NCBI GenBank assembly: GCA_021798745.1
Contig: JAJZBW010000002.1
Span: 1-49,366, forward strand
Direction: 5' to 3'
Origin: Actinomycetes bacterium
Lineage (GTDB): Bacteria > Actinomycetota > Acidimicrobiia > Acidimicrobiales > Bog-793
Length of the DNA stretch: 49,366 nt
A program made the translations under genes and the position numbers. This document shows positions 6,441-33,960 of this stretch, one piece after another. A model generated the notes under the pieces. The model was given only the letters and a program-made list of their open reading frames with translations, was not told where the DNA came from and ran no database searches. Positions within the stretch are counted from its first letter, which is position 1; each line of letters opens with the position of its first letter.

Positions 6441-7877
6441 ATGGCAGCGCTCGAGCGATTCGAGAACTTCGTCGGAGGGCGGCGCGTCGCCGCGCGCTCC
6501 GAGCAGGTGGACGAGATCGTGGACCCGAGCACGGGCGAGCCGTACGCGACCGCCCCGGTGTCCGACGCGTCGGACGTGGACGACGCGGTCCGCGCCGCGG
6601 AGAGAGCGTTCCCGGCCTGGCGCGACGCGACCCCGTCGCAGCGGTCGCTCGCGCTGTTCCGGATAGCGGACGCGCTCGAGTCTCATGCGGACGAGATCGC
6701 CCGCATCGAGTGCCGCGATACGGGCAAGCCCCTCGCGGTGATGCTCTCCGAGGAGATCCCTCCCTCCGCCGACCAGATCAGGTTCTTCGCGGGTGCGGCC
6801 CGAATGCTCGAGGGCCGGGCCGCCGCGGAGTACATGGCCGGTCACACCTCGTACGTCCGGCGTGAGCCGATCGGCGTGTGTGCCGCGGTGACGCCGTGGA
6901 ACTACCCGCTGATGATGGCGATCTGGAAATGGGGACCCGCGCTCGCGGCGGGCAACACGATGGTCCTCAAGCCCTCGGACACGACCCCGGCCTCGATCCT
7001 GTTCCTCGCGGAGCTCATGGCCGAGCACCTGCCTCCGGGCGTGCTCAACGTGGTGTGCGGCGACCGCGACACGGGCCGCGCTCTCGTCGCGCACGACGTG
7101 CCCCAGATGGTGTCGATCACCGGGAGCGTGCGCGCGGGGATCGAGGTCGCGACGGCCGCCGCTCCGTCGCTGAAGCGCGTGCACCTCGAGCTCGGCGGGA
7201 AGGCGCCCGTCGTGGTGTTCGACGACGCGGACCTCGAGTCCGCGGCCGACGGGATCGCGATGGCCGGGTACTTCAACGCGGGCCAGGACTGCACCGCCGC
7301 GACACGCGTGCTCGTCGCTCCGGGCCTCCACGACGCGTTCGTCGCGGCCCTCGCCGACAGGGCGAGGGCGACCAAGGTCGGGGGGACGGACGTGCCCGAC
7401 GCGGAGGTCGGGCCGCTCAACAACGTGAACCAGCTCGCACGCGTCGCGGGGATCGTCGAGCGGGTGCCCGCGCACGCGGAGATCGTGGTCGGAGGAACGC
7501 GGCTGGGCGATCGCGGGTACTGCTACGCGCCGACGGTCGTGGCGGGCCTGCGACAGGACGACGAGATGGTCCAGGACGAGATCTTCGGGCCGGTGATCAC
7601 GGTCCAGAGGTTCTCCGACGAGGACGAGGCGATCTCCTGGGCGAACGGGGTGCGATACGGGCTCGCGTCGAGCGTGTGGACGTCGAACCACGGTCGCGCC
7701 ATGCGCATGGCGAAGGCGCTCGACTTCGGCGCCGTCTGGATCAACACGCACATCCCGATCGTCGCGGAGATGCCGCACGGAGGGTTCAAGAGCTCCGGGT
7801 ACGGCAAGGACCTGTCCGTGTACGGGTTCGAGGACTACACGCGCCTCAAGCACGTGATGTCGAGCCTCGGAGCCTGA
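6441..7877 (+). CDS. Aldehyde dehydrogenase (aminobutyraldehyde/betaine-aldehyde dehydrogenase-like)
   Basis: The translation contains VTPWNYPLMMA, the LELGGKAP Glu box, the FNAGQDCTAATR Cys box, and EIFGPVITV. I place the start at ATG 6441 with GGGAGG at 6430-6435. The ORF-track start at 6375 adds a non-conserved leader. Confidence 0.9.
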   Translation: MAALERFENFVGGRRVAARSEQVDEIVDPSTGEPYATAPVSDASDVDDAVRAAERAFPAWRDATPSQRSLALFRIADALESHADEIARIECRDTGKPLAVMLSEEIPPSADQIRFFAGAARMLEGRAAAEYMAGHTSYVRREPIGVCAAVTPWNYPLMMAIWKWGPALAAGNTMVLKPSDTTPASILFLAELMAEHLPPGVLNVVCGDRDTGRALVAHDVPQMVSITGSVRAGIEVATAAAPSLKRVHLELGGKAPVVVFDDADLESAADGIAMAGYFNAGQDCTAATRVLVAPGLHDAFVAALADRARATKVGGTDVPDAEVGPLNNVNQLARVAGIVERVPAHAEIVVGGTRLGDRGYCYAPTVVAGLRQDDEMVQDEIFGPVITVQRFSDEDEAISWANGVRYGLASSVWTSNHGRAMRMAKALDFGAVWINTHIPIVAEMPHGGFKSSGYGKDLSVYGFEDYTRLKHVMSSLGA

Positions 7878-7906
7878 CGGGGAGCGGCCGGGACGCGGGG
7901 CTCGAC

Positions 7907-7932
7907 GTCGTCGGGGTAGCGAGCCCGACGAC
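7907..7932 (+). terminator. GC hairpin downstream of the ALDH gene
   Basis: GTCGTCGGG (7907-7915) pairs with CCCGACGAC (7924-7932) around an 8-nt loop, 30 nt after the stop. There is no U-tract, which is common in high-GC actinobacteria. Confidence 0.3.
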
Positions 7933-8216
7933 CGTCGGGAGGGCGGCGGCCACGAAGGCGCCGACCACGTGCGCCGTCGTGAACGGCTTCGGGATCGACC
8001 TGCAGGTCGCCATCGGGAGGGCGAGGCGCGCAGCGGGCGGGTGTCGGTCGCCACCCGGTGCGTTCGACCCGTGGAAATCGTCGCCAATAGGTGCTGCCAC
8101 GACGGATCCGCTTGCAGTGTCCCCGCTCGAGTGCGAGGATTCGCAGGAGTGCGGCGAGGGAGCCGCGGCGCGCCCGCACGGACCAGGCGGGGCACGGAGC
8201 GATTCGAGGAGCGACG

Positions 8217-9332
8217 ATGAGGATCGGGATCCCCCGCGAGGTCAAGGACAACGAGTTCCGAGTGTCGATGACGCCCGCAGGCGTGCGCGAGCTCGTCTCG
8301 GCGGGGCACACCGTCAGGCTCGAGCGGTCGGCCGGTGTCGGGTCCTCGATCACCGACGCCGAGTACGAGAGGGCCGGAGCGACCATCGTGGAGACTGCGG
8401 ACGAGCTCTGGGCGGGGTCCGAGCTCGTGTGCAAGGTCAAGGAGCCCGTGGCCGAGGAGTTCCACCGACTGAGGGGCGACCTCGTGCTGTTCACCTACCT
8501 GCACCTGGCGGCGTCGCGCGCGTGCACGGACGCGCTCCTCGGCGCGGGGACCGTCGGGATCGCGTACGAGACCGTGCAGCTTCGGGACGGCTCGCTCCCG
8601 CTCCTCGCTCCTATGAGCGAGGTCGCGGGGCGAATGGCGCCGCTCGTCGGAGCCGAGCACCTCCAGCGTCCGGCCGGGGGGCGCGGCGTGCTCGTGAGCG
8701 GGGTGCCCGGAGTGCGTGCCGCCCAGGTGGTCGTCATCGGGGCGGGGGTGTCCGGGATGAACGCGGCCATGATCGCGGCGGGCATGCACGCCGAGGTGCG
8801 CGTGCTCGACCGCGACCTCGCGAAGCTGCGTGCAGTGGACGCGCTGTACCAGGGGCGGATCACGACGCTCGCGTCGAGCGAGCACGCGATCGAGGAGGCC
8901 TGCGTCGACGCCGACCTCGTGATCGGGGCGGTGCTCGTGCCGGGAGCCAAGGCGCCCCGTCTCGTGAGCGACGAGCTCGTCGCGAAGATGCGGCCCGGGT
9001 CCGTGCTGGTGGACATCTCGGTCGACCAGGGGGGGTGCTTCGAGTCGACGCACCCGACGACGCACTCCGCACCGACGTTCCCCGTCCACGGCTCGCTCTT
9101 CTACTGCGTCGCGAACATGCCGGGCGCGGTCCCGCACACCTCGACCCACGCGCTCACGAACGCGACGCTCCGCTACACGGTCGCGATCGCCGAGCACGGG
9201 TGGCGGGAGGCGGCACGCCACGACCCCGCGCTCGCGCTCGGGCTCAACACGGTGGACGGGTCGGTCACGTACGCGCCGGTCGCGGAGGCGCACGGTCTCG
9301 ACGTGCTGCCGCTCGCGGACGTGCTCGCCTGA
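8217..9332 (+). CDS. ald: L-alanine dehydrogenase
   Basis: The MRIGIPREVKDNEFRVSMTPAGV N-terminus is near-canonical for Ald. The NAD fold VVVIGAGVSGMNAA and the C-terminal FYCVANMPGAVP motif are present. The ATG at 8217 has GAGGA 7 nt upstream, and the product is 371 aa. Confidence 0.93.
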   Translation: MRIGIPREVKDNEFRVSMTPAGVRELVSAGHTVRLERSAGVGSSITDAEYERAGATIVETADELWAGSELVCKVKEPVAEEFHRLRGDLVLFTYLHLAASRACTDALLGAGTVGIAYETVQLRDGSLPLLAPMSEVAGRMAPLVGAEHLQRPAGGRGVLVSGVPGVRAAQVVVIGAGVSGMNAAMIAAGMHAEVRVLDRDLAKLRAVDALYQGRITTLASSEHAIEEACVDADLVIGAVLVPGAKAPRLVSDELVAKMRPGSVLVDISVDQGGCFESTHPTTHSAPTFPVHGSLFYCVANMPGAVPHTSTHALTNATLRYTVAIAEHGWREAARHDPALALGLNTVDGSVTYAPVAEAHGLDVLPLADVLA

Positions 9333-9364
9333 CCGCAGCCCTCGCGCCGCTACTATCCGGCGCG

Positions 9365-10528
9365 ATGCCCCGTCGCGCCCCGTACCTGACCTCCCGGCTC
9401 CAGGGGTTCGCGACGACGATCTTCGCGGAGATGTCCGCGCTCGCGACCTCTACGGGGTCGATCAACCTCGGCCAGGGGTTCCCGGACGTAGACGGGCCGG
9501 ACGAGGTGAAGGGCTGGGCCGTCGAGGCGATCCTCGCGGGCGAGAACCAGTACCCGCCCGGGAAGGGGATCGCCGCGCTCCGGTCGGCGGTCTCTGCCCA
9601 CCAGGCCGCCTGCTACGGGCTCGCGTACGACCCGGAGGAGGAGGTGCTCGTCACCGCAGGGGCGACCGAGGCCATCGCCGCCGCCCTGCTCGGGATGTGC
9701 GAGGTCGGCGACGAGGTCGTCGTGCTCGAGCCCTACTACGACGCGTACGCGGCGTGCACCGCGATGGCGGGAGCGGCACGACGGGTCGTGCCCCTGCGCT
9801 ACCCGGACTGGCGTCTCGACCCGGACGACCTCGACGCGGCGATCACTCCGCGTACCCGAGTCGTCGTCGTGAACAGCCCGCACAACCCGACAGGGCGGGT
9901 GCTGACCCGAGAGGAGCTGGAGCTCGTCGCGAGCCGGTGCGTCGAGAACGACCTTGTGGCGGTCACGGACGAGGTGTACGAGCACCTCGTGTACGACGGG
10001 AAGCACGTGCCGCTCGCGACCCTGCCGGGGATGCGGGAGCGGACGGTCTCTATCTCCTCCGCGGGGAAGACCTACTCGTTCACGGGCTGGAAGATCGGTT
10101 GGGCATGCGCGCCGGCACCGCTGCTCGCGGCGGTCCGGACCGCGAAGCAGTTCCTCACCTACGTGAGCGGCGCTCCGTTCCAGCATGCGATCGCGCGGGC
10201 GCTCCGGGAGAGCGATTGGCACGAGCGCGCGGCCGGGGTGCTCCGGCCCCGGCGCGACCAGCTTGCCGACGGGCTCGAGGCGCTCGGGTTCGAGGTCGCG
10301 CGCCCCGAGGGCGGCTACTTCGTGACGACCGACGTCCGATCCGTCGGGTACGACGACGGGCTGCGGTTCTGCGCGTCGCTCCCCGAGCGGTGCGGGGTCG
10401 TCGCGATCCCGAGCTCTGTCTTCTACGACGACCAGGATGCGGGTCGCCCGCTCGTCCGGTGGGCGTTCTGCAAGAGCGAGCAGGTGATCGACGAGGCGCT
10501 CGGCCGGCTCTCGTCGCTCGCGCCATGA
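9365..10528 (+). CDS. Class-I/II PLP aminotransferase (kynurenine/glutamine transaminase K, YbdL/DapC-like)
   Basis: The translation contains INLGQGFPD, NQYPPGKG, NSPHNPTG and SSAGKTYSFTGWKIGW (PLP Lys). Only the last 387 codons of the 1216-aa ORF-track frame are gene-like. The ATG is at 9365. Confidence 0.88.
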   Translation: MPRRAPYLTSRLQGFATTIFAEMSALATSTGSINLGQGFPDVDGPDEVKGWAVEAILAGENQYPPGKGIAALRSAVSAHQAACYGLAYDPEEEVLVTAGATEAIAAALLGMCEVGDEVVVLEPYYDAYAACTAMAGAARRVVPLRYPDWRLDPDDLDAAITPRTRVVVVNSPHNPTGRVLTREELELVASRCVENDLVAVTDEVYEHLVYDGKHVPLATLPGMRERTVSISSAGKTYSFTGWKIGWACAPAPLLAAVRTAKQFLTYVSGAPFQHAIARALRESDWHERAAGVLRPRRDQLADGLEALGFEVARPEGGYFVTTDVRSVGYDDGLRFCASLPERCGVVAIPSSVFYDDQDAGRPLVRWAFCKSEQVIDEALGRLSSLAP

Positions 10529-11352
10529 GGTCCACCGGGTCCCCGTCGAGGGCGCTTCGGATCGCCGCGGTCCAGTGCGATGTCGCCTGGGAAGACCGCG
10601 CCGCGAACCTCGGGCGCGCGGCGCGCGACGTCGCGGCGGCGGCGGACCAGGGGGCTCGCCTCGTGGTGTTCCCGGAGATGTTCCCGACGGGGTTCTCGAT
10701 GCGCACGGAGGTGGTCGCAGAGCCCGAGGACGGCCCGACGGCGGCCTTCCTGCACGAGCAGGCGGTGACGCGGGGGGTGCACGTCGGAGGCTCCTTCGCG
10801 TGCAGCGCCGCCGGTCGGGACCGACCCGTGAACCGCTTCCTCCTCGCCGCGCCAACGGGCGTGGACACCGTCTACGACAAGCTCCACCCGTTCAGCTACA
10901 GCGGCGAGGGCGAGCACTACGCGCCCGGGCGAGAGATCGTGACGACCTCGGTCGACGGGGTCCGGGTCACCCCGTTCGTCTGCTACGACCTGAGGTTCGC
11001 GGACGTGTTCTGGGACGCTGCAGCCGACACGGACGCGTACGTCGTGGTCGCGAGCTGGCCCGCGGCACGCAAGCAGCACTGGCGGGCGCTTCTTGCCGCT
11101 CGGGCCATCGAGAACCAGGCGTACGTGGTCGGCGTGAACAGGACGGGGACGGGCGGGGGCGTCGCGTACGAGGGGGGGAGCGTCGTGTTCGCACCCTTTG
11201 GCGAGGTCGTCGGCGAGGCCGGGACGGGTCCGGAGCTGCTCGTCGCGACGGTCGACCCGGACGAGGTGGGCGAGGTGAGGTCGCGCTATCCGTTCCTCGC
11301 GGACCGTCGTCGTGGCGAGGTGGCGCGGCGGCTGCCCGCGAGCTCCTCGTAG
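10525..11352 (+). CDS. Carbon-nitrogen hydrolase (nitrilase superfamily; omega-amidase/Nit2-like)
   Basis: The pattern LRIAAVQCDVAWED..., VVFPEMFPTGF (catalytic Glu), the YDKLHPF Lys region, and FVCYDLRF (catalytic Cys) is typical of the C-N hydrolase fold. The ATG at 10525 overlaps the aminotransferase stop as ATGA. Confidence 0.85.
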   Translation: MRSTGSPSRALRIAAVQCDVAWEDRAANLGRAARDVAAAADQGARLVVFPEMFPTGFSMRTEVVAEPEDGPTAAFLHEQAVTRGVHVGGSFACSAAGRDRPVNRFLLAAPTGVDTVYDKLHPFSYSGEGEHYAPGREIVTTSVDGVRVTPFVCYDLRFADVFWDAAADTDAYVVVASWPAARKQHWRALLAARAIENQAYVVGVNRTGTGGGVAYEGGSVVFAPFGEVVGEAGTGPELLVATVDPDEVGEVRSRYPFLADRRRGEVARRLPASSS

Positions 11353-13934
11353 AGGGCGCGGGTCTCCTCGGACGGCTCGCCTCCGTCCAGGATCGCGAGC
11401 CCGGCTTCGAGGTCGTGCCACTCCCGGCGGAGCGCGTCGGGGTCTCCCGAGAGGTCCGCGAGGATCATCGCGTCGCGAGCGAGCATCTCCGAGCACGGCT
11501 CGACGATCCGCCCCTTCGAGACCGCCCAGCTCGCGAGGTCGAGCTCGCGACCGGCGATGGCGAGGGACGCGAGGTGGTGGCTCGCGTCGACGACCGACGA
11601 CACCATGGTCGTGAGGAGGCCTCGGGACACGAGCCAGTCCCACCCGGACGGCGACTCCGAGCACGGGAGACCTCCGACGAGGTCGAGCGCGCCGGCCAGG
11701 AGCTCGATCGCCTCCGGGACCGACGACGTGCGGGCGCGCGTGGACATCTGCTCGAAACGGGTCCAGTCGCAGGTCACGCGCTCGTCGAGCCGGTAGCGCC
11801 CGCCCGAGGAGGCGGGGAGCAGGAAGCGCCCCTCCTCGTCCGTGCCGAGCGCCGATCGTGCTGCCGAGGCGACGTTGTGGACACGGCCGAGCGACGCGAC
11901 TCGGTCGCTCCGCCCGAATACCTGCTCGCGTATCGCGTCGGTCGTCGCGCCATGGCCGGCGAGCGCGAGGTAGGCGACGAGCTCGACGACTCGCGAGCGG
12001 TCCTTGCTCGCGAGCGGGGACGCAAGCCCCGTGAGCGACGGGACAGGGGCGAGCACACAGATCTCGACCTGCCCGGGCCCGGCGCGCCTCGACGGCCGGC
12101 CGGTCGACGCGACGCCAGGTGCGGGGGCGGCCGGACGCACGAGGAGGGGCCGGTCGAGGAGGTCGTCCGCGAGCGCCGCCTGGAGCGCGGTGGGCGAGCG
12201 CGCGAGCAGCTCCACGCCGTCGGGGAGCACGACGAGGGCACCGTGCTCGACGACCACGGTGACGGCGATCTCGGGACCGCCTCGGACCGAGGTCGTCACG
12301 ATCCCCGCCCTCTCCCCGATCGCCGCGCGGAGGTCCGGCCCGAGAGCGTCGGCGGGCGGACCGTCGAGGACGACGAGCACGTGCTGTGGCTCGCTGCGAA
12401 CGGCCCGGTCTGCCGCGTCGGGGAGGGGCGAGCGCGCGAGGGCGACGAGCTCCGAGGCGCTCGACGGCGCGACCGTGTGGTCGCAGCGGGACCCTGGGGG
12501 AGGGTCGACCCCGAGGAGCTCGACCTGGAGAGCGCTCGCCCACGGGAGGGTGCAGAGCGCGGTGACCATCGCGTCGAGATGGGGACGCAGGGGGGCGCCG
12601 TCCGCGCTCCGTAGGAGGAGGTGGCGACGCGGGCCGACTGCGGCGAGATAGGACGCCTCCGCGGAGTCCCCAATCGGCACGAGAGCCGGGACGTGCCGTC
12701 GGAAGCCGTCGACGAGTGCGAGGAGGTCGGCGAGCGCGATGTCGGGATCGAGCACCCAGGTCCAGCCTCCGTCGCGTGACAGGAACCCCTCGGGCGGGTC
12801 GACGACCGGGGCGTCGAGGAGGAGCTCGACCCCGTCGGGCCCGGCGCGCACGAGGCGCACCTCGGGCAGAGCGCCTCGCCGGTCGCGAAGGGCGCGCGTG
12901 AGGAGCCTGTTCGCGCCGTCCACCCAGTCGAGGAGAGTCGTGTCCGCGAGCGGGTCGAGCGCCGCCGCGGCGGAGGCGGTGTGGGGATCCCCCTCCGCGG
13001 CGCGCTCGCCCGGTCGGCGCATGCACTCGGTCGAGCGGCGTGAAGATCGGATCTTGCGCGCGAGAGCCGCGGTCGTGAGCATCCCGAGGCCGAGAATCCC
13101 GAGCTCGGCGAGCCCGCGCACGGGGATGCCGCCCGGGTGTGGCCCGGTGCTCGGCGGATCGGGGTGCCGCGTGACCTCGAGGGCCCGCTCCGTCCGCCGG
13201 GCCGCGACGACCCGCCGACGAGGCAGGCCGGTCGAGCTTCGCTCCGCCGCGCTGCGCTCGGTGGTGGCGCGCGGCATCGTCCTCGATCCTGCTCGACGCG
13301 AGACGACGGGTGCCCCGGGGGCAGAGGGGATGGCGAGCACCCATCCGGGGTACACGAGGCTCGGGTCGACGAGACGCCTCCCGTCCGGCTCGTGCCGGTC
13401 CTGGTTGAGGCGCCAGAGGGTCGTCCACTCGGCCGCGTCTCCGAGCAGTCGGGCTGCGATCGACGCGAGGCAGTCGCCGGGCCGGACGACGTAGCTGCGC
13501 ACCGCGGGGGACGGATCACCTGAGGCGACTGCGGGTGTCTCCGCGTGTGCTGCGACGGGGGGACTCGCTAGGGACGGGGCCGCGTACGCGGCGCTCGCGC
13601 CGACGGTGAGGCCCGATCCGAGGACGAGCAGGAGCCCGGCGACCCGAGTCGCCCAGCGGGCCGACCACGAGCGCGAGGGCGACGCGAGACGACCGTCGAG
13701 GGCGCGCGCGACGTCGCGTACGAGCCGGACGGCCGCGGCGCCCCACAGGGCGGCGACGAGCGCGATCACGAGGTGGTCGATCGTCGCCCGTGCGAGCCAC
13801 GGCTCGGAGGCGCGCGGAGCGGAGGGAGCCAGCGCCCAGAGCCGGGCGAGGGCGACGGGCACCCCTCCTAGGAGCACGGCGCACTTCGCGAGCGCGACGA
13901 GACCCGAGAACGTTGCTCTCGAGCGGGTCGTCAT
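11286..13934 (-). CDS. Membrane-tethered regulator: 3 TM + extracytoplasmic LysM + TM + unknown cytoplasmic region + winged-HTH/BTAD (SARP-type) C-terminus
   Basis: Hydrophobic helices lie at about aa 11-33, 53-72, 96-117 and 274-292. A LysM signature lies at aa ~147-203 (YVVRPGDCLASIAARLLGDAAEWTTLWRLN...YPGWVLAIP). The C-terminus (VEICVLAPV...SRVVELVAYLALAGHGATTDAIREQVFG...RYRLDERVTCDWTRF...) is followed by TPR-like BTAD helices ending in ALYEELAG. Confidence 0.75.
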   Translation of the reverse strand: MTTRSRATFSGLVALAKCAVLLGGVPVALARLWALAPSAPRASEPWLARATIDHLVIALVAALWGAAAVRLVRDVARALDGRLASPSRSWSARWATRVAGLLLVLGSGLTVGASAAYAAPSLASPPVAAHAETPAVASGDPSPAVRSYVVRPGDCLASIAARLLGDAAEWTTLWRLNQDRHEPDGRRLVDPSLVYPGWVLAIPSAPGAPVVSRRAGSRTMPRATTERSAAERSSTGLPRRRVVAARRTERALEVTRHPDPPSTGPHPGGIPVRGLAELGILGLGMLTTAALARKIRSSRRSTECMRRPGERAAEGDPHTASAAAALDPLADTTLLDWVDGANRLLTRALRDRRGALPEVRLVRAGPDGVELLLDAPVVDPPEGFLSRDGGWTWVLDPDIALADLLALVDGFRRHVPALVPIGDSAEASYLAAVGPRRHLLLRSADGAPLRPHLDAMVTALCTLPWASALQVELLGVDPPPGSRCDHTVAPSSASELVALARSPLPDAADRAVRSEPQHVLVVLDGPPADALGPDLRAAIGERAGIVTTSVRGGPEIAVTVVVEHGALVVLPDGVELLARSPTALQAALADDLLDRPLLVRPAAPAPGVASTGRPSRRAGPGQVEICVLAPVPSLTGLASPLASKDRSRVVELVAYLALAGHGATTDAIREQVFGRSDRVASLGRVHNVASAARSALGTDEEGRFLLPASSGGRYRLDERVTCDWTRFEQMSTRARTSSVPEAIELLAGALDLVGGLPCSESPSGWDWLVSRGLLTTMVSSVVDASHHLASLAIAGRELDLASWAVSKGRIVEPCSEMLARDAMILADLSGDPDALRREWHDLEAGLAILDGGEPSEETRALYEELAGSRRATSPRRRSARNG

Positions 13935-13940
13935 CCGGGG

Positions 13941-14780
13941 TCACCTCCGCTGCGCCGGGTAGTGGGCGACGAGCGAGTACGACACGACTGCGGCCGTGCC
14001 AACGGGCTCGGCGATCGTGACCTCGCAGTTTCCCGGCTCGCCTACCGCAGACACGTACAGTCCCGTCGTCCCCGTTGCCGACCGCGACCCGCCCGCGCAC
14101 ACGACCGAGATCCTGAGCTCGGGAGCTCCGGACCAGGCTGCGGTCGCGGAGACGACGCCGCCCGAGGTCCGGAGCGCGAACGCCGCGGACACGTCGTCCG
14201 GGTACTGGAGGTTGCCCGGCCAGGACACGGTCACGACCGCCGGCCCGGGTGGCGTGCTCGGTGGGGGCGCGCCCGCGGACGGAGCGTTAGCCGCGGGACC
14301 GGCACGCCTCGTCGGTCGCGCGCTCGGGCTCGTAGTCGCGACTGTCGACGTCCTCGTCGGAGCAGCGGTCGTCGGAGCAGCGGTCGTCGGAGCAGCGGTC
14401 GTCGGAGCAGCGGTCGTCGGAGCAGCGGTCGTCGGAGCAGCGGTCGTCGGAGCAGCGGTCGTCGGAGCAGCGGGCAGCCGCGTCGTCCCCGAGGAAAGCG
14501 GGCCCTGCTTTGTTGCATACCGCGGCGGGGCCGAGGGTGGGACGGTCGCGCTCCCCTCTCGCCTCCGGCCGCGCGAGGGCTCCGCGGAGCGCTCTCCGTG
14601 GACCCCGCTGCGGGAGGCGTGCACGGGGCGTGCGGTCGTGAGAACGACGACGGCAGCGACGGCGATGCCGAGAGCGAGCCACGAGGCGAGCTCGTGACGG
14701 GGCCGCCGCTCGTCGGCGGTGCGCCGAGCGGCGCGTCGGCGGCGTCGGCTGCCGGACGACGGTGCGGCGCGTGCGGTCAC
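13941..14780 (-). CDS. Single-pass membrane protein with (AAPTT)n linker and Cys-containing C-terminal beta-rich domain
   Basis: An Arg-rich N-terminus of ~30 aa is followed by a TM helix (LASWLALGIAVAAVVVLTTA) and then 7-8 AAPTT repeats. A ~100-aa C-terminal domain carries 2 Cys. The gene overlaps the sigma-like gene stop by 4 nt, and its own stop lies 6 nt before the start of the next gene. It sits in the anti-sigma position but lacks a canonical anti-sigma domain. Confidence 0.6.
   Translation of the reverse strand: MTARAAPSSGSRRRRRAARRTADERRPRHELASWLALGIAVAAVVVLTTARPVHASRSGVHGERSAEPSRGRRREGSATVPPSAPPRYATKQGPLSSGTTRLPAAPTTAAPTTAAPTTAAPTTAAPTTAAPTTAAPTTAAPTRTSTVATTSPSARPTRRAGPAANAPSAGAPPPSTPPGPAVVTVSWPGNLQYPDDVSAAFALRTSGGVVSATAAWSGAPELRISVVCAGGSRSATGTTGLYVSAVGEPGNCEVTIAEPVGTAAVVSYSLVAHYPAQRR
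14356..14475 (-). repeat. 15-bp tandem repeat (plus-strand unit GTCGGAGCAGCGGTC), 7 perfect copies plus 1 copy with one mismatch
   Basis: Read directly: units start at 14356, 14371, ... 14446 and are identical, and the unit at 14461 ends CGGGC instead of CGGTC. The repeat is in-frame and encodes (AAPTT)n on the minus strand. Confidence 0.95.
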
Positions 14781-15496
14781 CGAACCACCGCCTGCTCCGC
14801 GAGCCGGCGCCGGTACGCGAGATGCGACGCGCTCTCGCCGGTCATCTCGGCAAGCTCGGCGAGCCGGTACCCGTGGACGCGGGTCGCGACGAGGAGCGCG
14901 ACGTCGCGTGGGGCGACCAGCGACCCGGAGAGCAGTGCGAGCGCGTGGGCGAGCTCGCTCAAAAGGTCGACGCCCGGCGAGGGCAGGTCGTCCAGGTCGT
15001 CTGGCGATCGGCGGCGGGCGAGGTCGCGTCGGTGGCGTTCGAGGTCAGTGCGCAGCGAGCGGCGAGCCCGCTCCAGGATCACCCGACAGGGCCGCTCGAG
15101 GGTGAGCCCCGCATGGAGCCGGGCAGAGCGCCAGGCGGCGGCGACGAGATCGGACTCGAACTCGTCCCGGTCCGACCAGGGGCCGCCTTCGCCCCAGTGC
15201 AGGGATCTGGCGACGCGCGTGAGCCCGGGGATGAGAAGGCGGACGACCGTCACCCCGACGAGCTCGTCACACTCGAACTGTCGAACGAGTGCTGCGATGG
15301 CGGCGTTCACGAGATCAGGGGGAACGGCTCGCGCCCGACCGCTCGTCACGGCGACGAGCTCGGAGAGGTCGCGCGCGTCGAGGCGGGCGACGTCCGGCTC
15401 GAGCGCGGCGAGTCGATCGACGACCGCGCGAGCGCGCGGGGACGCCGCGACAAGCTCCCATCTCCGTCGGACCGTGTCGAGGGCACGCACCGTCAT
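14777..15496 (-). CDS. Divergent sigma-70/ECF-like sigma factor (region-4 HTH clear, region 2 weak)
   Basis: The C-terminus PRDVALLVATRVHGYRLAELAEMTGESASHLAYRRRLAEQ fits the sigma region-4 / LuxR-like HTH pattern. The central LIPGLTRVARSL...DEFESDLVAAAWRS loosely resembles region 2. It is the first gene of a 3-gene minus-strand unit. Confidence 0.5.
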   Translation of the reverse strand: MTVRALDTVRRRWELVAASPRARAVVDRLAALEPDVARLDARDLSELVAVTSGRARAVPPDLVNAAIAALVRQFECDELVGVTVVRLLIPGLTRVARSLHWGEGGPWSDRDEFESDLVAAAWRSARLHAGLTLERPCRVILERARRSLRTDLERHRRDLARRRSPDDLDDLPSPGVDLLSELAHALALLSGSLVAPRDVALLVATRVHGYRLAELAEMTGESASHLAYRRRLAEQAVVR

Positions 15497-15806
15497 CGGG
15501 GCGACTGTGCCACCCGCTATTCACGCGTTGCCTCACCTGTCTATTCACGGTGCAGATCACGACCTATCGGCGTGGTCCGACTGCTCACGCCTCACCTCAC
15601 GCGCTGTGATCACAGGACAGCCTGCTCGGATGATGTCGGCCCAATCGAAGAAATACCACAGCACGACAACGCATCTCCCGCGTCGTCCGGCCGCCCGTGG
15701 CACGGGAGGGAGAAGTTTCACCGTTCTTGCCTGTGCCTCGCCAAGTACTCCTTGACGCGAATAGCGCGTCGTAGGTTCACGATACGCACAGGAAGGCGTA
15801 CACAGT
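15497..15806. promoter_or_regulatory. Divergent promoter/operator region between the sigma-like gene and the adhesin gene
   Basis: This 310-bp spacer is visibly lower in GC. It carries the direct repeat CTATTCACG at 15517-15525 and 15541-15549, GCCTCACCT at 15530-15538 and 15589-15597, and a perfect 12-bp palindrome CTGTGATCACAG at 15604-15615. AGGAAGG lies ~12 nt before ATG 15807. Confidence 0.45.
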
Positions 15807-18800
15807 ATGAAGGGCCCGTGCACCCGCGTGACTCTGCGGCGAGCCTTCGCGGTCGTCGTCGGCGTGGCGGGCGCAGCCTGCCTCCTCGCGGTCCTCGGTT
15901 CCGCACCCGCGGCGGCGTCGGAGGTCTGCGGGACGACGACCGTCGCGTCCGCGTACAACGGCGCGTGCGCGACGTTCGAGGGAGTGTCCGGCTGGTTCGG
16001 CACCTACGGGCCGGGGTTCCCGACGGCGACCGGCTGGGCGCTCGCTGCCGGGTCACCGGCCCCGGGCCCCGGCCCCAGCCCTGCGGGCGCGTACTCGGCC
16101 GCGGTCGCGCCCGTCGGATCGGACACGGGGTCGCTTCCCGCGCTCGGGTACGCGCTCGGCGAGGCGACCGCTGCCGGCGCGTGGGCTGGCGGCGCGTCGT
16201 TCAGCGCGGACGACGCGGCGGTCGCCGCGGAGCTCCTCTACGACCACCTCGTCTGGGGAGCGCCAAGCCCGCTGCTCGCCGCCGGTGAGCTCGCCGCTTA
16301 CGACGAGCTCGAGGCGTGGTTCGCGGGCGCATCGGGAGCGACGGGGAGCCCGACGCTCGACATGAACACCACGGGAATCGGCCCCGTGCCGACTGCGGGG
16401 GCGATCTACCAGGTCCGGCTCGTGTTCCCCGGGTCGGGCGCGGCCGCCTCGGGGGTCCCAGTCACGCTCACGCTCCACGGGGGGACCTTTGCGGGTGGCG
16501 CGACGGCCGCGACGCTCACGACGGACTCGCTCGGCGACGTGAGCGCGGAGGTGTACGCGGACAGCTCCAGCACCCCGGTCACGGTCGACGCTGCCGCGTC
16601 GGTGGGCGCGCTCGGACTTCAGTTCCTCGCTACGGGCGCCGGTGACGAGGTCGTGAGCCCAGAGTCCCCCGTCACGACCTCGAACTCCGACACGATCGCC
16701 CCCTCCGGACAGCCGGCAGGTACCGGGACCGTGTCGGTGGACGAGGGCGGTGACGACGTCGCCTATCTCGGGCTCTCCGGCGGCGTCTACCAGGTCGTGG
16801 GCACGGCCGGGACGGTTGTCGCGACGCTCACGACGAACTCCTCGGGCGCAGCCGGCCCAAGCTTGCCTCTGCCGGCCGGGACCTACACGGTCCGCGAGTC
16901 GACCGCGCCGCTGGGGTACGCCCCGGGCCCGGACCAAACCGTGACCGTTCTCGACGGGGGCAACGTCACGGCGCATTTCACGGGAGCTAACGAGAACACG
17001 GCTATTCCTGCGACACTTGATGTGAACGACACGGATGAACAGACTGGCGTTCCGCTGGCATACGCCACGTTCGATATCAGATTTGATTCCCAGGGCAACG
17101 GATCGTTTGGAACTGACCTCGGGACGTGTACGACGGATGCGCAAGGCACTTGCCAGCCTCCTTCCAACGACGGAGCGAGCTTTCTTCCTGGGAAATACCT
17201 GATTTCCGAAGTCGGTCCAGCACCTGGTTACGCGGCATCTACGAGCAATTCAAATGTCATAACGCTCGAGCCCGGTGCGACGGTATCTCTCAGCATTCAG
17301 GAGCTGTTGCTCGGCTCCCTTACGGTCTCCATGACGGGGAACGACACGGCCTACTACCCGGTCGGTGGGGCGCAGTTCGAGGTGTCCGGGCCCGCTCCGT
17401 CGAACGGGCTGGCGGGGACGGTCACGGTCGGGGCGTCCGGGCCGTCGGGAGCGGTGGGAGGTCTCGAGCCGGGGATCTACACGCTCACAGAGACGAAGCA
17501 GCCGCCGGGCTACGCGGCTGTGCCTCCGTTCGACACCTCCGTGTCGCTCGGGCACGCGACGACAGTGGCGCACGTGGCGGATTCCGTCGACCCGGGGACG
17601 CTCGACGTGTACAACGTCGCGTCGGGGACGAGCGCACCCGTCGTGGGCGGAGTGTTCGACGTGCGGTACGACGCGACGGCGTCCGGCGTGTACGGAGACG
17701 ACCTCGGCGAGTGCACGACGAGCTCGATCGGGGCGTGCTCTCCCAGCTCGGGAGGGGCCATCGGGCTCCTGCCCGGGCGTTACGAGGTCACCGAGGTGTC
17801 GGCGCCGCCGGGGTACGCGCCCGGAGCGGGCGCGACGAGCCGGTACGTGGTGCTCGCGCCGGGGTCGGCGGCGGTCGTCGACTTCGCGGACCCGAGGCTC
17901 GTCGCGGTCGAGTTCGCCAAGCACCCGACGGGGAACGTCGACCCCGTCGCGCTGGACGTCGCGGGCGCGCGCCTCGTGGTGGACGCGACGGGCAGCCCGG
18001 GGGGCGCGGTCGCGACGTGCACGACGGACGGCGCGGGAACCTGCACGACGCAGCCGGCCCTCGTGCCCGGGGATAGATACTGCTGGGTCGAGACCGTCGC
18101 GCCCCCGGGCTTCGTGGCGGGCGAGAGCGGATGTCTCGTGGCCGCGTCGGGAGCGGGCACCGTCGCGGTCGCGGTCGACGAGCCGGGGGAGTTCGTGGAG
18201 GTCACCGCCGCGAAGGTCGACGCGATCGCCCCGGGGGGGGACCTGGCGGGGGCGACCCTCGACCTCTACAGGATGGTCGGCGGGAGCGGCCCTCCCGGCC
18301 CGCCGCCCCCGGCGGGCGCCCCGACGATCGCGGGGGGGACGTGGGTCGCGTCGGTCACGTCCGGGTCGTCGGGCCCGGCGGTGTTCCCGCTCGAGCTGCC
18401 CGGGTACCGGTACTGCGTGGTCGAGGGCACGCCGCCACCCGGCTACCAGGCGGACCGGGCGCCGCGGTGCACCCCGGTCCTCGCGGGCCGGACTTCCGTG
18501 CCTCCCGAGACGGCTCTCGTCACGCTCGCCGACGTCCCGCTCGTCGGTCCGGGCGCGCCCCCACCTCCGGCACCGGGCGAGTGGCCGCCGAAGCCCGACG
18601 CCCCGGCCCCGGCCCCGGCCCCGACCCCGGTCCCGGCCGGGAGCTCGGGGCCACCCGCGGTCGTGGGGACGGTGACGATCCGGGCGCACAAGTTCGACTC
18701 CCTCGCTCCTGCGAGCGCTATCGGGGGCGCGGTCTACGACCTGTACGTGGTCGGACCACCGCTCTCGAGCGTGCCGCCGGTCGAGCCGGGGGACCCCACC

Positions 18801-19553
18801 CCGCGACGGCGCGCGGGCGAGCACTGGGTCGAGCGCGGCCGGACGGACGCGGCGGGAAACCTCTCGTTCGTCGTGCCGTCCGGCCGCTCGTGGTGCCTCG
18901 TCGAGGTCTCGGCACCGCCCGACTTCGTCGCCGACCCCCGTGCGCGCTGCACGCCCGTGCTCGGGAGGGGGAGCCCTCCCGGGGAGGATCGCGTCCTTCT
19001 TCCCGAGCGACCGCGCATGGTCGACATCCAGGCGCACAAGTTCAACTCGCTCGAGCCGGACACGGGCATACCCGGGGCGGTGTACGCGGTCTTCTCCGTC
19101 GGAGGCCGCGCTCCCGGCGCGCGGCCCGCCCGGGGGTTCCCAGTCCCCCGGGGGGTGCCGGGCGGCGCGTTCTACGAGCTCGGGGTCACGGGGCGGGACG
19201 GCGAGATGGTCCTCGAGGTGCCCGCCGGGTACGCGTGGTGCTTGAAGGAGGTCCGCGCGCCGCCGGGGTACCGGTTCGACCCGGCGCTGCACTGCACGGT
19301 CCGTCTGACGGCGCGCCAGGCGGTCGCGCCGGTCGAGATAGCGCTCCCGGAGATCCCCTCGCACCTTCCGATGCCCGCCCGTCCCCCGGCCCCTCCCGCC
19401 CCGGCGCCGCCGACGCTCCCGTTCACCGGCCTCGACGTCGAGCCGATGGTCGAGCTTGCCGGGGCTCTCGCCCTCGCGGGCGCCGTGCTGCTCCTGACCG
19501 CTCGGGGCCGGGGCCGGGGCCGGGGCCGGGGCCGGAGGCGAGGGGAAGTGTGA
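15807..19553 (+). CDS. LPxTG(LPFTG)-anchored cell-wall surface protein with eight SpaA/prealbumin-like (Cna-B-type) repeats
   Basis: The signal peptide is MKGPCTRVTLRRAFAVVVGVAGAACLLAVLGSAPAAA. Eight repeats each end in the motif Y/W-x-[VLI]-x-E-x3-P-P/L-G-Y/F (YTVRESTAPLGYAP, YLISEVGPAPGYAA, YTLTETKQPPGYAA, YEVTEVSAPPGYAP, YCWVETVAPPGFVA, YCVVEGTPPPGYQA, WCLVEVSAPPDFVA, WCLKEVRAPPGYRF). Pro-rich linkers are present. The C-terminus is LPFTG, a hydrophobic helix, and an RGRGRGRGRGRRRGEV tail. Confidence 0.88.
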   Translation: MKGPCTRVTLRRAFAVVVGVAGAACLLAVLGSAPAAASEVCGTTTVASAYNGACATFEGVSGWFGTYGPGFPTATGWALAAGSPAPGPGPSPAGAYSAAVAPVGSDTGSLPALGYALGEATAAGAWAGGASFSADDAAVAAELLYDHLVWGAPSPLLAAGELAAYDELEAWFAGASGATGSPTLDMNTTGIGPVPTAGAIYQVRLVFPGSGAAASGVPVTLTLHGGTFAGGATAATLTTDSLGDVSAEVYADSSSTPVTVDAAASVGALGLQFLATGAGDEVVSPESPVTTSNSDTIAPSGQPAGTGTVSVDEGGDDVAYLGLSGGVYQVVGTAGTVVATLTTNSSGAAGPSLPLPAGTYTVRESTAPLGYAPGPDQTVTVLDGGNVTAHFTGANENTAIPATLDVNDTDEQTGVPLAYATFDIRFDSQGNGSFGTDLGTCTTDAQGTCQPPSNDGASFLPGKYLISEVGPAPGYAASTSNSNVITLEPGATVSLSIQELLLGSLTVSMTGNDTAYYPVGGAQFEVSGPAPSNGLAGTVTVGASGPSGAVGGLEPGIYTLTETKQPPGYAAVPPFDTSVSLGHATTVAHVADSVDPGTLDVYNVASGTSAPVVGGVFDVRYDATASGVYGDDLGECTTSSIGACSPSSGGAIGLLPGRYEVTEVSAPPGYAPGAGATSRYVVLAPGSAAVVDFADPRLVAVEFAKHPTGNVDPVALDVAGARLVVDATGSPGGAVATCTTDGAGTCTTQPALVPGDRYCWVETVAPPGFVAGESGCLVAASGAGTVAVAVDEPGEFVEVTAAKVDAIAPGGDLAGATLDLYRMVGGSGPPGPPPPAGAPTIAGGTWVASVTSGSSGPAVFPLELPGYRYCVVEGTPPPGYQADRAPRCTPVLAGRTSVPPETALVTLADVPLVGPGAPPPPAPGEWPPKPDAPAPAPAPTPVPAGSSGPPAVVGTVTIRAHKFDSLAPASAIGGAVYDLYVVGPPLSSVPPVEPGDPTPRRRAGEHWVERGRTDAAGNLSFVVPSGRSWCLVEVSAPPDFVADPRARCTPVLGRGSPPGEDRVLLPERPRMVDIQAHKFNSLEPDTGIPGAVYAVFSVGGRAPGARPARGFPVPRGVPGGAFYELGVTGRDGEMVLEVPAGYAWCLKEVRAPPGYRFDPALHCTVRLTARQAVAPVEIALPEIPSHLPMPARPPAPPAPAPPTLPFTGLDVEPMVELAGALALAGAVLLLTARGRGRGRGRGRRRGEV
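19504..19533 (+). repeat. (GGGGCC)5 hexanucleotide microsatellite inside the adhesin 3' end
   Basis: Read directly: five perfect GGGGCC units encode the (RG)5 part of the post-anchor tail. A related imperfect (CCCCGG)n tract at 18601-18636 encodes APAPAPTPVPA. Confidence 0.9.
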
Positions 19554-32808: not shown

Positions 32809-33960
32809 ATGGAGATCGTCGATCAGAGCGCGCGCTCCCGGCCCCGGTCGAGCCGACGGCTCCTCCTCGGGGCACTCTCCGCAGGTCTCGCGTGCACGCT
32901 CGGGGCGTCGCTCGCGGCCGTCGCGGGCGCGTCGGCCGCGCGTCCCGCAGACCGCGGTCACCCGGGTCACGGTGGCGACGGGCACGGCGGCAACGGCGGC
33001 TTCGGGCACCGGGGGCTCCACGACGCGATCTCCGGGACCGTGAGCGGCGTCGCGGCGGACGGCTCGAGCTTCACGCTCGCGACGGGCCGGAACGGGCTCC
33101 TGCAGCTCACGGTCGACCTGCAGGCGACGACCGTGTACAGCGAGGGCGGGGCGTCGTCGTCCATCACGGCTCTCCGGACCGGCGTGAAGGTGCGCGTGCG
33201 CGGGACGATGACCGCCGCCAACACGATCACGGCGGCCTCGGTGGACATCGCGGCGTCGAGCTCGGCCACGCCGACGGTGTCGGTCGAGGGGACGGTCACC
33301 GCGGTCGCGGCGAGCTCGTTCACCCTCGCGACGGGGGACAACGCGCTCGTCCAGATCACGGTCGACGTGAGCCCGACGACCACGTACCGCACTTCCGGCT
33401 CGGAGCCGCACCCGTACGGTCCGTGGTGGGGCACGACGACGACCACGACCTCGACGACCTCCACCACGACCTCGACGACCTCCACCACGACGACCGTCGC
33501 GCCTCCGCCGCTCGGAGGCGTCGCGTTGGGTGACCACGTCGAGGTCCGGGGCACCGTGAGCGCCCCGAACACGATCACCGCGACGGTCGTCGACATCCGG
33601 TCGACCGGCGGCGTGGAGGTCACCGGGAGGGTGGGCGTCGTCGGGTCGAGCAGCTTCACGCTGCTCCACGGGAGGAGCTCGCTGAACCAGATCACGGTGG
33701 ACGTGACGTCCTCGACGACCTACTCGACGTTCACGCCCGGCCCGTGGCGTCTCGAGCCGACCGAGGAGGGGACGACCACGACGACCACGCTGCCGGGCAC
33801 GACCACGACGGTCTCCCCGACCACGCCCGGGCTCGGGTCGCTCGTGGCCAACGACCTCGTCTCGGTCCGGGGGACCGTGAGCGCGCCGAACACGATCACC
33901 GCGACGACGATCGTCGTGCTCCCCGCGTCCGGAGCGTTCCCCGGCCGGCACGGCGACTGA
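32809..33960 (+). CDS. Secreted protein with three DUF5666-like repeats, His/Gly-rich N-terminus and Thr-rich inserts
   Basis: A Tat-like signal (SRRLLLGALSAGLACTLGASLAAVAGASA) is followed by HPGHGGDGHGGNGGFGHRGLHD. Three ~100-aa repeats each have G[TR]V..V...SF[TL]L..G...L.Q[IL]TVD....T.Y......G..V.VRGT.[ST]A.NTITA. The GTTTTTTSTTSTTTSTTSTTTT inserts are also present. Confidence 0.7.
   Translation: MEIVDQSARSRPRSSRRLLLGALSAGLACTLGASLAAVAGASAARPADRGHPGHGGDGHGGNGGFGHRGLHDAISGTVSGVAADGSSFTLATGRNGLLQLTVDLQATTVYSEGGASSSITALRTGVKVRVRGTMTAANTITAASVDIAASSSATPTVSVEGTVTAVAASSFTLATGDNALVQITVDVSPTTTYRTSGSEPHPYGPWWGTTTTTTSTTSTTTSTTSTTTTVAPPPLGGVALGDHVEVRGTVSAPNTITATVVDIRSTGGVEVTGRVGVVGSSSFTLLHGRSSLNQITVDVTSSTTYSTFTPGPWRLEPTEEGTTTTTTLPGTTTTVSPTTPGLGSLVANDLVSVRGTVSAPNTITATTIVVLPASGAFPGRHGD
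33444..33485 (+). repeat. Perfect 21-bp tandem duplication (CACGACCTCGACGACCTCCAC x2)
   Basis: Read directly: 33444-33464 is identical to 33465-33485. It is in-frame and encodes the duplicated TTSTTST unit. Confidence 0.9.

Follow-up and report, generated by a model that had tools for sequence, protein, structure and literature searches.

A putative layered control module for surface proteins in Acidimicrobiia, with a membrane-tethered SARP-like protein and its stalked partner at the core

A stretch of 49,366 nucleotides (the window) from an Actinomycetes bacterium of the Acidimicrobiales lineage Bog-793 (assembly GCA_021798745.1, contig JAJZBW010000002.1, positions 1 to 49,366) contains four adjacent genes that may together control the display of a surface protein. 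Three of them lie on the minus strand and encode, in the order of transcription, a sigma-like protein of 239 amino acids (aa), a 279-aa membrane protein and an 882-aa membrane protein whose C-terminal part resembles a Streptomyces antibiotic regulatory protein (SARP). The fourth, on the plus strand, encodes an adhesin of 1248 aa (Table 1). These open reading frames (ORFs) were confirmed at the coordinates given for them in an earlier reading of this DNA (the original prediction), as were the 4-nt overlap of the 239- and 279-aa genes (GTGA), the 6 nt between the 279- and 882-aa genes and the divergent spacer of 310 bp (15497-15806), with a G+C content of 60.6% against 73.2% for the window. The sequence GGAGG is found 9 nt 5' of the ATG of the 882-aa gene, and G+C at third codon positions (GC3) is 0.81-0.89 in all four frames, which therefore look coding. 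When the four proteins were scanned directly with Pfam and NCBIfam, SpaA and a LysM below threshold were the sole matches, and none of them matched the models for BTAD, Trans_reg_C or Sigma70. Therefore, the domain labels of the original prediction hold only at the level of remote homology, through homologues and predicted structure.

Searches with the 882-aa protein retrieved 44 homologues, all of them metagenome sequences or metagenome-assembled genomes of Acidimicrobiales. Kyte-Doolittle peaks were found at aa 12-36, 54-72 and 95-116 and, for the fourth transmembrane (TM) segment, at 274-292. The helices of an AlphaFold2 (AF2) model built on a 20-member family alignment were at 3-35, 47-79, 90-118 and, for TM4, 285-305; the predicted local distance difference test (pLDDT) of this model was 75 for the whole protein and rose to about 90 in its cytoplasmic domains. 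Hydropathy and model place the LysM loop (aa ~120-275) outside the cell and everything beyond aa 292 inside. LysM scored 18.5 bits in Pfam, with a gathering score of 20.9, and matched PRK11198 in NCBIfam (E=1e-4); its region shows a beta-alpha-alpha-beta fold in the model, and distant relatives of the protein exceed the Pfam LysM threshold. In a Foldseek search against the PDB, the C-terminal module matched the SARP domain of AfsR within the transcription-activation complex (8hvr_I, E=1.2e-6, TM-score 0.73, 259 columns) and EmbR (2fez, E=2e-5). Pfam BTAD was matched in 9 of the 20 family members (best E=1e-7) and Trans_reg_C in one of them (E=0.087), and distant relatives pass the Pfam thresholds in the order LysM, FtsK_SpoIIIE, Trans_reg_C and BTAD; against PDB sequences, a profile of the 882-aa family gave nothing beyond weak LysM matches. 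A winged helix-turn-helix (wHTH) plus BTAD in a membrane protein that exposes LysM, as originally proposed, was supported by the AF2 structure and Foldseek, the wHTH/BTAD part by structure and homologues and not by direct profile search of the window protein.

Structure prediction of the central region revealed a P-loop-less FtsK-like domain that the original prediction had missed. Foldseek aligned it with the FtsK motor (6t8g_B, E=4e-3, probability 0.97) and with ESX-3 core chains (E=6e-4), and distant relatives exceed the threshold of Pfam PF01580 (FtsK_SpoIIIE). The Walker A motif GxxxxGK[ST] is absent from this domain in 20 family members (the window protein and 19 others), 13 distant relatives and 15 metagenomic relatives; at the position aligned to Walker A the window protein reads RRHLLLRSADGAP. 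As no member checked has a Walker A, the domain is a pseudo-ATPase and not a translocase.

Table 1. Features of the four-gene locus and of its divergent spacer, in window coordinates
Feature	Positions	Strand	Basis
Divergent ECF-like sigma (ECF, extracytoplasmic function), or at least sigma-region-4 HTH protein, 239 aa; ~65-aa N-terminal extension	14777..15496	-	family profile, Foldseek
Single-pass membrane protein, 279 aa, constant partner of the 882-aa protein	13941..14780	-	ORF, synteny
Single TM span in the 279-aa protein, at aa 31-49	14634..14690	-	hydropathy, alignment
Perfect 15-bp x 8 tandem repeat coding for the stalk, (APTTA)8, in the 279-aa protein	14354..14473	-	Tandem Repeats Finder, 100% matches, score 240
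Extracytoplasmic C-terminal domain of the 279-aa protein, ~95 aa, no matching family	13944..14237	-	alignment of 18 sequences
Polytopic membrane protein, 882 aa: TM1-3, external LysM, TM4, FtsK-like, C-terminal SARP	11286..13934	-	ORF, homologues, AF2, Foldseek, hydropathy
TM1 to TM3, at the N-terminus of the 882-aa protein (aa 12-116)	13587..13901	-	Kyte-Doolittle and AF2
LysM-like ectodomain of the 882-aa protein, aa 146-203	13326..13499	-	Pfam, NCBIfam, AF2
TM4 of the 882-aa protein, aa 274-292, predicted to bring the chain back into the cytoplasm	13059..13115	-	hydropathy, AF2
FtsK/EccC-like alpha/beta domain without Walker A, aa ~330-595 of the 882-aa protein	12150..12947	-	Foldseek
SARP module (OmpR-type wHTH and BTAD), aa ~620-872 of the 882-aa protein	11319..12077	-	Foldseek, Pfam in homologues
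Wall-anchored adhesin, 1248 aa: signal peptide and N-terminal domain of ~260 aa, then 8 domains of SpaA/CnaB type and LPFTG	15807..19553	+	Pfam, motifs
Cell-wall sorting signal of the adhesin: LPFTG, hydrophobic stretch, Arg-rich tail	19416..19550	+	sequence
-10-like hexamer CACAGT, 7 nt 5' of the 239-aa ATG	15504..15509	-	sequence; conserved in 8 loci
Four direct repeats CGTGA(T/A) / GTGAGG, 12-bp spacing	15519..15561	-	invariant columns, 8 loci
Upstream repeat pair CGTGAG-N6-CGTGAG	15585..15602	-	invariant GCGTGA columns, 8 loci
Conserved non-coding block GTTTCAC ... TGTGCCTCGCC ... TACT, candidate promoter/operator, 50-90 nt before the adhesin ATG	15716..15757	+	alignments

The 279-aa protein begins with about 30 Arg-rich cytoplasmic residues followed by one TM segment, and two Cys together with W, G and Y are invariant among 18 sequences of its C-terminal domain. 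This domain has no relative in Pfam or the PDB, and a PPC-like fold considered for it was dropped as unsupported. Pfam and NCBIfam gave nothing for the whole protein, including no anti-sigma domain, so that hydropathy and Pfam agree with the original description of a protein having only some 30 cytoplasmic residues and no recognisable anti-sigma domain. The homologues carry PT/ST-rich stalks differing in length and sequence; this and the perfect repeat found here indicate that stalk length probably varies by slippage.

Word-indexed searches with the 239-aa protein gave just 5 and 8 relatives, whereas an exhaustive profile search found 355 representatives of clusters defined at 50% identity (E<=1e-3), nearly all of about 240 aa and matching over their full length. 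In a 58-member alignment of this family, Sigma70_r4_2 was matched by 25 members (best E=2e-5), Sigma70_r4 by 6, Sigma70_ECF by 6 and Sigma70_r2 by none of the 58, and one family member had been annotated by JGI as a sigma24-family protein. The best match of the family profile in the PDB was the ECF sigma CnrH (E=9.5e-6, query 107-242 on CnrH 44-183), followed by SigC, SigD, SigE, SigR, SigH and SigL; the alignment with CnrH and several weaker ones are colinear from region 2 into region 4. Comparison of the family with Escherichia coli RpoE by hhalign aligned the region 4.2 helix-turn-helix (HTH) only (E=1e-3, probability 20%). Nearly all of the top 50 Foldseek matches were sigma factors, but with E>=0.03 and on an AF2 model made from 5 sequences with a pLDDT of 55. 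No match to the 239-aa protein was found on plasmids. These results suggest a divergent ECF-like sigma in which region 4 is solid and region 2 suggested only. Hence the ECF-like call of the original prediction stands at the level of the family profile, where region 4 is clear, and fails in direct searches, with region 2 weak. As the family matches no Pfam model at its curated threshold, surveys starting from Pfam sigma-70 domains would miss it. At another locus (L030, 1987-4679) a distant member lies directly 5' of genes for a VirD4/TraG-type coupling protein and an AAA_30 protein, and the wider family may therefore be common on conjugative elements.

The signal peptide, eight SpaA-like repeats and LPFTG anchor described for the adhesin were all recovered: Pfam SpaA (PF17802) matched it with E=9e-46 in 7 stretches, eight E-box-like motifs (E..P.GY) were counted, LPFTG is located at aa 1204 and the N-terminus is signal-like. 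In its homologues the sorting motif reads LPYTG, LPFTG or LAFTG. The adhesin contains no [WYF]P[KR] or YPK pilin motif, no sortase was detected by the TLxTC motif beside the module in any related locus, and no sortase, pilin partner, Tad gene or integrase turned up when about 48 ORFs called in the window were scanned with Pfam. The adhesin is an ordinary multi-domain LPXTG protein with a single eight-domain stalk, not a pilin, and the earlier statement that the locus is not a standard pilus island agrees with these data. Between 16860 and 17300 the GC3 of the adhesin gene drops from about 0.9 to 0.55-0.72 and total G+C to 0.55-0.64. This part spans the second SpaA-like domain (aa ~350-500), which may be a recently recombined or imported cassette.

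The distribution of the four genes was studied in 62 loci, scored with local hidden Markov models of the four proteins and with duplicate contigs left out of the counts. All four genes were present in 10 loci, the window included. The adhesin gene diverges from the sigma-279-882 genes in the window, L002, L005, L008, L010, L011, L020, L027 and L031, and the four genes are co-directional in L032, where 1.6 kb separates them from genes for a tyrosine integrase and an HTH_17 protein. The idea of a conserved module is supported by the finding of the same genes in the same arrangement in at least nine other loci, one of them next to an integrase, with proteins merely 29-67% identical. In L033 the sigma-279-882 genes diverge from that of a different giant protein, of 1214 aa with He_PIG, NHL and Big_3_5 domains, and in L001 and L009 the contig ends within or just 5' of the sigma gene, making the adhesin position unreadable. 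Additionally, the 279- and 882-aa genes alone were found in 17 loci, 15 of them from Acidimicrobiaceae. Those with their flanks read (L003/L004 and L006) occupy the same chromosomal site as the window (Pirin ... AlaDh), and across the Acidimicrobiaceae radiation sharing this site the 882-aa proteins are just 35-60% identical.

The co-occurrence is nested. A 279-aa homologue lies immediately upstream of the 882-aa homologue in 28 of the 28 Acidimicrobiales loci with readable upstream DNA, and the sigma gene is always followed by both (17/17 sigma loci). Of the 15 sigma loci whose upstream DNA can be read, 11 encode a giant surface protein beside the sigma gene; no such protein accompanies the pair in any of the 17 loci lacking sigma. 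The 882-aa gene can occur without the 279-aa gene, but the latter never without the former; likewise the adhesin is never found without the sigma gene, nor the sigma gene without the pair, save the very distant one beside the VirD4 gene in L030. Thus the co-occurrence expected from the original prediction extends beyond this genome, with the sigma and adhesin genes in a subset of loci only. Because a neighbour-joining tree puts the sigma-bearing loci outside both Acidimicrobiaceae clades, the two-gene state would most simply be explained by loss of sigma and adhesin with retention of the 279-aa gene. The juxtamembrane motif RRxRELAxWLALG of the 279-aa protein is kept in both clades. As this protein is kept in 17 loci lacking sigma, always beside the 882-aa protein, it is the partner of the latter and not a classical anti-sigma; the anti-sigma position assigned to it earlier has no functional sense, and the anti-sigma reading was demoted.

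Two of the four-gene loci, both outgroups (L031, 1-1452; L032, 7533-9071), encode a CAP/SCP-domain protein of about 500 aa beside the SpaA adhesin, which is absent from the window and may be further cargo or an accessory of the module. In L032 (772-2280 and 3895-13413) the four genes and the CAP-domain gene stand near the tyrosine integrase and the excisionase-like HTH_17 gene, and further HTH genes and a Sigma70_r4 gene follow the module, which in this locus rides on an integrative element.

The DNA 5' of the sigma gene carries, in eight four-gene loci, invariant direct repeats with the core CGTGA(A/G), 12 bp apart, with a proximal array and a further pair upstream of it. The last repeat core ends 10 bp (9 bp with a 7-nt unit) from the -10-like hexamer, which across these loci reads CA(C/G)AGT or TAAGCAT. 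The ATG follows after only 7-8 nt, implying that the operon mRNA is probably leaderless or near-leaderless. The three-repeat pattern is unique within the window (0.05 expected by chance). A consensus scan for sigma-70 promoters and terminators gave no sites, and Rfam gave no match over 10.5-20.5 kb. In the 14 fully read two-gene Acidimicrobiaceae loci, CGGGAG-N6-CGGGAA-N10-CA(A/C)CGT precedes the 279-aa homologue, and this type of motif occurs once per locus, all 17 matches in 894 kb being at this site. These loci (e.g., L003, 9040-9075) also have an invariant inverted TTCCCG some 35-45 nt upstream and an invariant (T/G)CAAC(A/G) box, so that their operator layout is more complex than a simple SARP box. 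In L033, GGTAAACC repeats 12 bp apart are followed after 7 nt by CACTGT and after 6 nt more by the ATG; L031 has GTCGAAAA repeats. In both loci the repeats thus differ from those above but are again spaced by 11-12 bp and stand before CACTGT and the ATG.

Characterised SARPs recognise direct repeats spaced by 11 or 22 bp, of which the 3' one stands 8 bp from the -10, and the -10 of afsS is CACTGT (PMC10936776). The layout seen here comes near to this. In our loci the recognition helix of the wHTH changes by clade, RVHNV accompanying CGTGAR, R(A/T)(D/E)N(V/T) accompanying CGGGAR and other helices other repeats; the changes in helix and repeats together fit SARP-type autoregulation. The 882-family protein is the sole DNA-binding candidate common to all these loci and for this reason we infer that it is the best candidate reader of the repeats, which would make the operon autoregulated. 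No ECF-type -35/-10 motif common to the sigma and adhesin promoters was found. An inverted copy CGCGAATAG at 15756-15764, near the adhesin start, was rejected as a repeat directed at the adhesin because it is not kept in L002 or L005. The proposal that cell-wall status gates adhesin display keeps its conditional form; what the DNA points to is SARP-type autoregulation of the three-gene operon.

The 882-aa family is not isolated. Genes for its distant relatives stand at the end of Tad operons in Streptacidiphilus (DN069_34015) and on a Streptomyces plasmid (OG238_RS00210), and 153 actinobacterial plasmids carry a relative. A table of Cutibacterium acnes plasmid genes lists a 'LysM, BTAD' ORF (PAGK_2369) in the same position of a Tad operon (PMC3666418). 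In six loci (L036, L038, L039, L040, L042 and L043) the 882-aa homologue lies 0.7-0.9 kb downstream of a gene for a VirB4-like ATPase (PDB 4ag5, E=3.5e-10), as in L038 with the VirB4-like gene at 6781-8187 and the homologue at 8896-11769. No 279-like or sigma-like gene was detected in these six loci, and a crude ORF caller found no clear ORF between the two genes. Tad genes were absent from the window and from the Acidimicrobiales loci inspected. The proteins of the Tad operons share with the 882-aa protein the order LysM, FtsK-like, wHTH and BTAD, the N-terminal TM segments, the lack of Walker A, the linkage to surface-structure genes and a distant similarity at both ends. However, they are of 1050-1250 aa, are co-transcribed after tadA/B/C, flp and tadE, and are accompanied by no 279-like partner, sigma-like gene or LPXTG adhesin. 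The 882-aa protein shares one broad family with the Tad-operon LysM/BTAD proteins, which had been listed before but not studied, the literature yielding annotation tables only and no functional study of them (PMC3666418).

We propose, with a probability of roughly 0.45, that the four genes form a conserved, layered module of Acidimicrobiia for the control of surface proteins, in which a tethered-SARP core is joined by an accessory layer of sigma and adhesin. The core, visible in the predicted structure and in the co-occurrence, consists of the 882-aa protein, with LysM outside and the FtsK-like and SARP modules inside, always encoded with its 279-aa partner, whose PT-rich stalk would hold the ~95-aa disulfide domain in the wall zone. 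The tethered SARP module would bind the 12-bp-spaced repeats abutting the -10 of its own operon promoter and replace the -35 contact, as soluble SARPs do, giving self-activation of the operon. Envelope input would arrive through two ectodomains, LysM and the C-terminal domain of the 279-aa protein, and the pseudo-ATPase domain would couple it to the SARP module in the way of the NOD domain of large SARPs. The sigma-like product, whose gene accompanies that of a giant surface protein in most readable loci, would most likely transcribe the divergent adhesin gene from the block at 15716-15757, and a housekeeping sortase encoded elsewhere would anchor the adhesin to peptidoglycan. A wider reading, which we find doubtful, is that LysM-pseudoFtsK-SARP proteins could constitute a widespread membrane-embedded class of SARPs in Actinomycetota that read the state of peptidoglycan or envelope through LysM (in the present locus with the help of the stalked partner) and switch on the surface-structure genes accompanying them, i.e., those for Tad pili on plasmids of Streptomyces and Cutibacterium, for the type IV secretion system (T4SS) of conjugative elements and, in Acidimicrobiia, for giant adhesins anchored by sortase. 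Their action would depend on lineage-specific 12-bp-spaced repeats at promoters lacking a -35 and, in the present lineage, proceed through a dedicated, highly divergent sigma.

Several observations weigh against the module as proposed. The window 239-aa protein alone had no match in Pfam or NCBIfam, nor in the PDB through a shallow-alignment profile, and its sigma region 2 is weak, given the hhalign match confined to region 4.2 and the low pLDDT of its model. The 882-aa protein of the window was likewise missed by the Pfam and NCBIfam models of BTAD and Trans_reg_C. Four loci (L029, L041, L044 and L051) have the sigma-279-882 genes without an adjacent giant protein. The repeats are spaced by 12 bp and not by the 11 or 22 bp of characterised SARPs, and phylogeny confounds the co-variation seen between helix and operator, for which there are few independent clades. 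The adhesin gene has no copy of the repeats directed towards it, and the block at 15716-15757 does not reproduce the array; what links the regulators with the adhesin is accordingly only their adjacency and co-occurrence. Moreover, no precedent for DNA binding by a membrane-tethered SARP was found in the literature, the source organism is known from metagenome assemblies only, and the relatives linked to Tad and T4SS genes could equally mean a structural role.

Such a role, in which the 882- and 279-aa proteins, anchored in the wall, would serve as scaffolds or help to assemble surface structures, the wHTH/BTAD part would make protein contacts and another regulator would read the repeats, we consider unlikely. 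It would account for relatives that end Tad/Flp operons (PMC3666418) or follow a VirB4-like ATPase, for the resemblance of the FtsK-like fold to the secretion ATPases EccC and FtsK, and for the presence of BTAD, which is a TPR-like interaction domain. However, the wHTH is well folded in the model and superposes on DNA-bound AfsR, the repeats have the geometry of SARP boxes and co-vary with the recognition helix, and in 17 loci the pair stands alone among housekeeping genes with no machine to assemble. Distinctly unlikely, in our opinion, is that the block is the legacy of an integrative or conjugative element whose genes serve the element with no sensing of the host envelope, the adhesin acting in mating pairs, the 882-aa protein descending from a DNA handler of the TraB or type IV coupling protein kind and the sigma controlling element genes. 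The integrase and HTH_17 gene near the module in L032, the distant sigma-like gene preceding the VirD4/TraG coupling protein in L030, the six relatives after a VirB4 gene and the 153 plasmids with a relative would all agree with it. So would the combination of an FtsK-like domain with a repeat-reading wHTH, which recalls Streptomyces TraB and its clt site. The window, on the other hand, has no integrase, relaxase or T4SS gene among its called ORFs and no tRNA gene, the G+C content of the block equals that of the genome, the chromosomal site (Pirin ... AlaDh) is constant across the Acidimicrobiaceae radiation, and DNA pumping is excluded since Walker A is missing in every member.

We give little credence to the wiring of the original prediction, according to which the 239- and 279-aa proteins would pair up as a classical ECF sigma and its membrane anti-sigma, while the 882-aa protein would be a second regulator acting independently on the same adhesin. 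The succession of a sigma gene and a single-pass membrane protein gene with a 4-nt overlap is the usual order of such pairs, and the anti-sigma CnrY of the best PDB match, CnrH, uses a short cytosolic peptide (4cxf). But the 279-aa protein, juxtamembrane segment included, follows the 882-aa protein into the sigma-less loci, the tree indicates that it was kept when sigma and adhesin were lost, and a class I anti-sigma domain needs more than some 30 cytoplasmic residues, Pfam giving no match either. Finally, it is very improbable that the genes are mere neighbours without a functional link, the 239-aa protein being an ordinary HTH regulator and the repeats incidental. The failure of direct Pfam searches with the 239-aa protein and the SARP part of the 882-aa protein, and the four loci lacking an adhesin beside the three genes, would fit this view, whereas nested co-occurrence down to about 30% identity in unrelated genomic contexts and invariant non-coding elements contradict it.

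SARPs are soluble activators of Streptomyces antibiotic clusters. Comparison of the proposed module with them (AfsR, ActII-ORF4, DnrI, and EmbR of Mycobacterium tuberculosis) indicates, besides the superposition of wHTH and BTAD, the same kind of promoter, in which direct repeats adjoin a weak -10 (CACAGT in our locus, CACTGT for afsS) and a -35 cannot be recognised. Large SARPs also have a nucleotide-binding-type domain fused to this module, although theirs is NOD/NB-ARC with TPR and here it is an FtsK-like fold devoid of the P-loop. In addition, SARPs usually carry the module at the N-terminus, whereas in the 882-aa protein it is C-terminal, behind four TM helices and an external LysM, and the protein is encoded among surface-protein genes. 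ECF sigma/anti-sigma pairs such as CnrH-CnrY and SigE-RseA resemble the locus in having a small, two-domain-like sigma with a region-4 HTH, a single-pass membrane protein encoded directly downstream and, apparently, an envelope protein as target. They differ in that region 2 of the 239-aa protein is barely detectable and preceded by a ~65-aa extension, and in that the downstream membrane protein tracks the SARP protein and not the sigma. ToxR, CadC and TcpP are likewise membrane-tethered regulators with an OmpR-type wHTH and a sensor across the membrane, with small partners such as ToxS and TcpH. In the 882-aa protein, by contrast, the sensor is N-terminal and the DNA-binding part C-terminal, with four TM helices, a BTAD and a pseudo-ATPase. 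The two have no sequence relationship beyond the wHTH fold, and the resemblance is one of logic only. As to SpaA-type pilus islands, the SpaA/CnaB-type domains, E-box-like motifs and LPXTG signal are shared by the adhesin, but the YPK motif, class C sortase and partner pilins are missing from the window and related loci. No described system with this gene composition was found in the literature, as the original prediction had stated.

The module looks like an undescribed tie between the expression of surface proteins and the cell envelope. If the proposal is true, a wall-binding tethered SARP with a dead FtsK-like domain would take SARPs into envelope signalling and surface display, and would account for a gene standing last in many Tad operons of actinobacteria, those on plasmids of C. 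acnes included. For the uncultured Acidimicrobiia that abound in soils and peat, the locus also gives a first clue to how they might control a giant adhesin. Operator-regulator pairs are predicted to differ by clade, which makes the proposed DNA recognition testable by swaps.

The flanks of the module in the window are housekeeping genes, with an aminotransferase and a CN-hydrolase on one side and Pirin, Fur, CopD and PFK on the other. The 3' ends of the 882-aa gene and of the convergent CN-hydrolase gene overlap by 67 nt (11286-11352); the overlap is of 25 nt in L001 and L002, and no terminator-like site was found. Elsewhere in the window, two overlapping ORFs on opposite strands both have a high GC3, 0.95 for 32809-33960 (plus strand), which matches DUF5666 and DUF5818, and 0.97 for 32967-33695 (minus strand). 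A single ORF of 617 aa (42947-44800) contains two ETF domains and an ETF_alpha domain; either EtfB and EtfA of an electron-transfer flavoprotein are fused here, or two genes share the frame.

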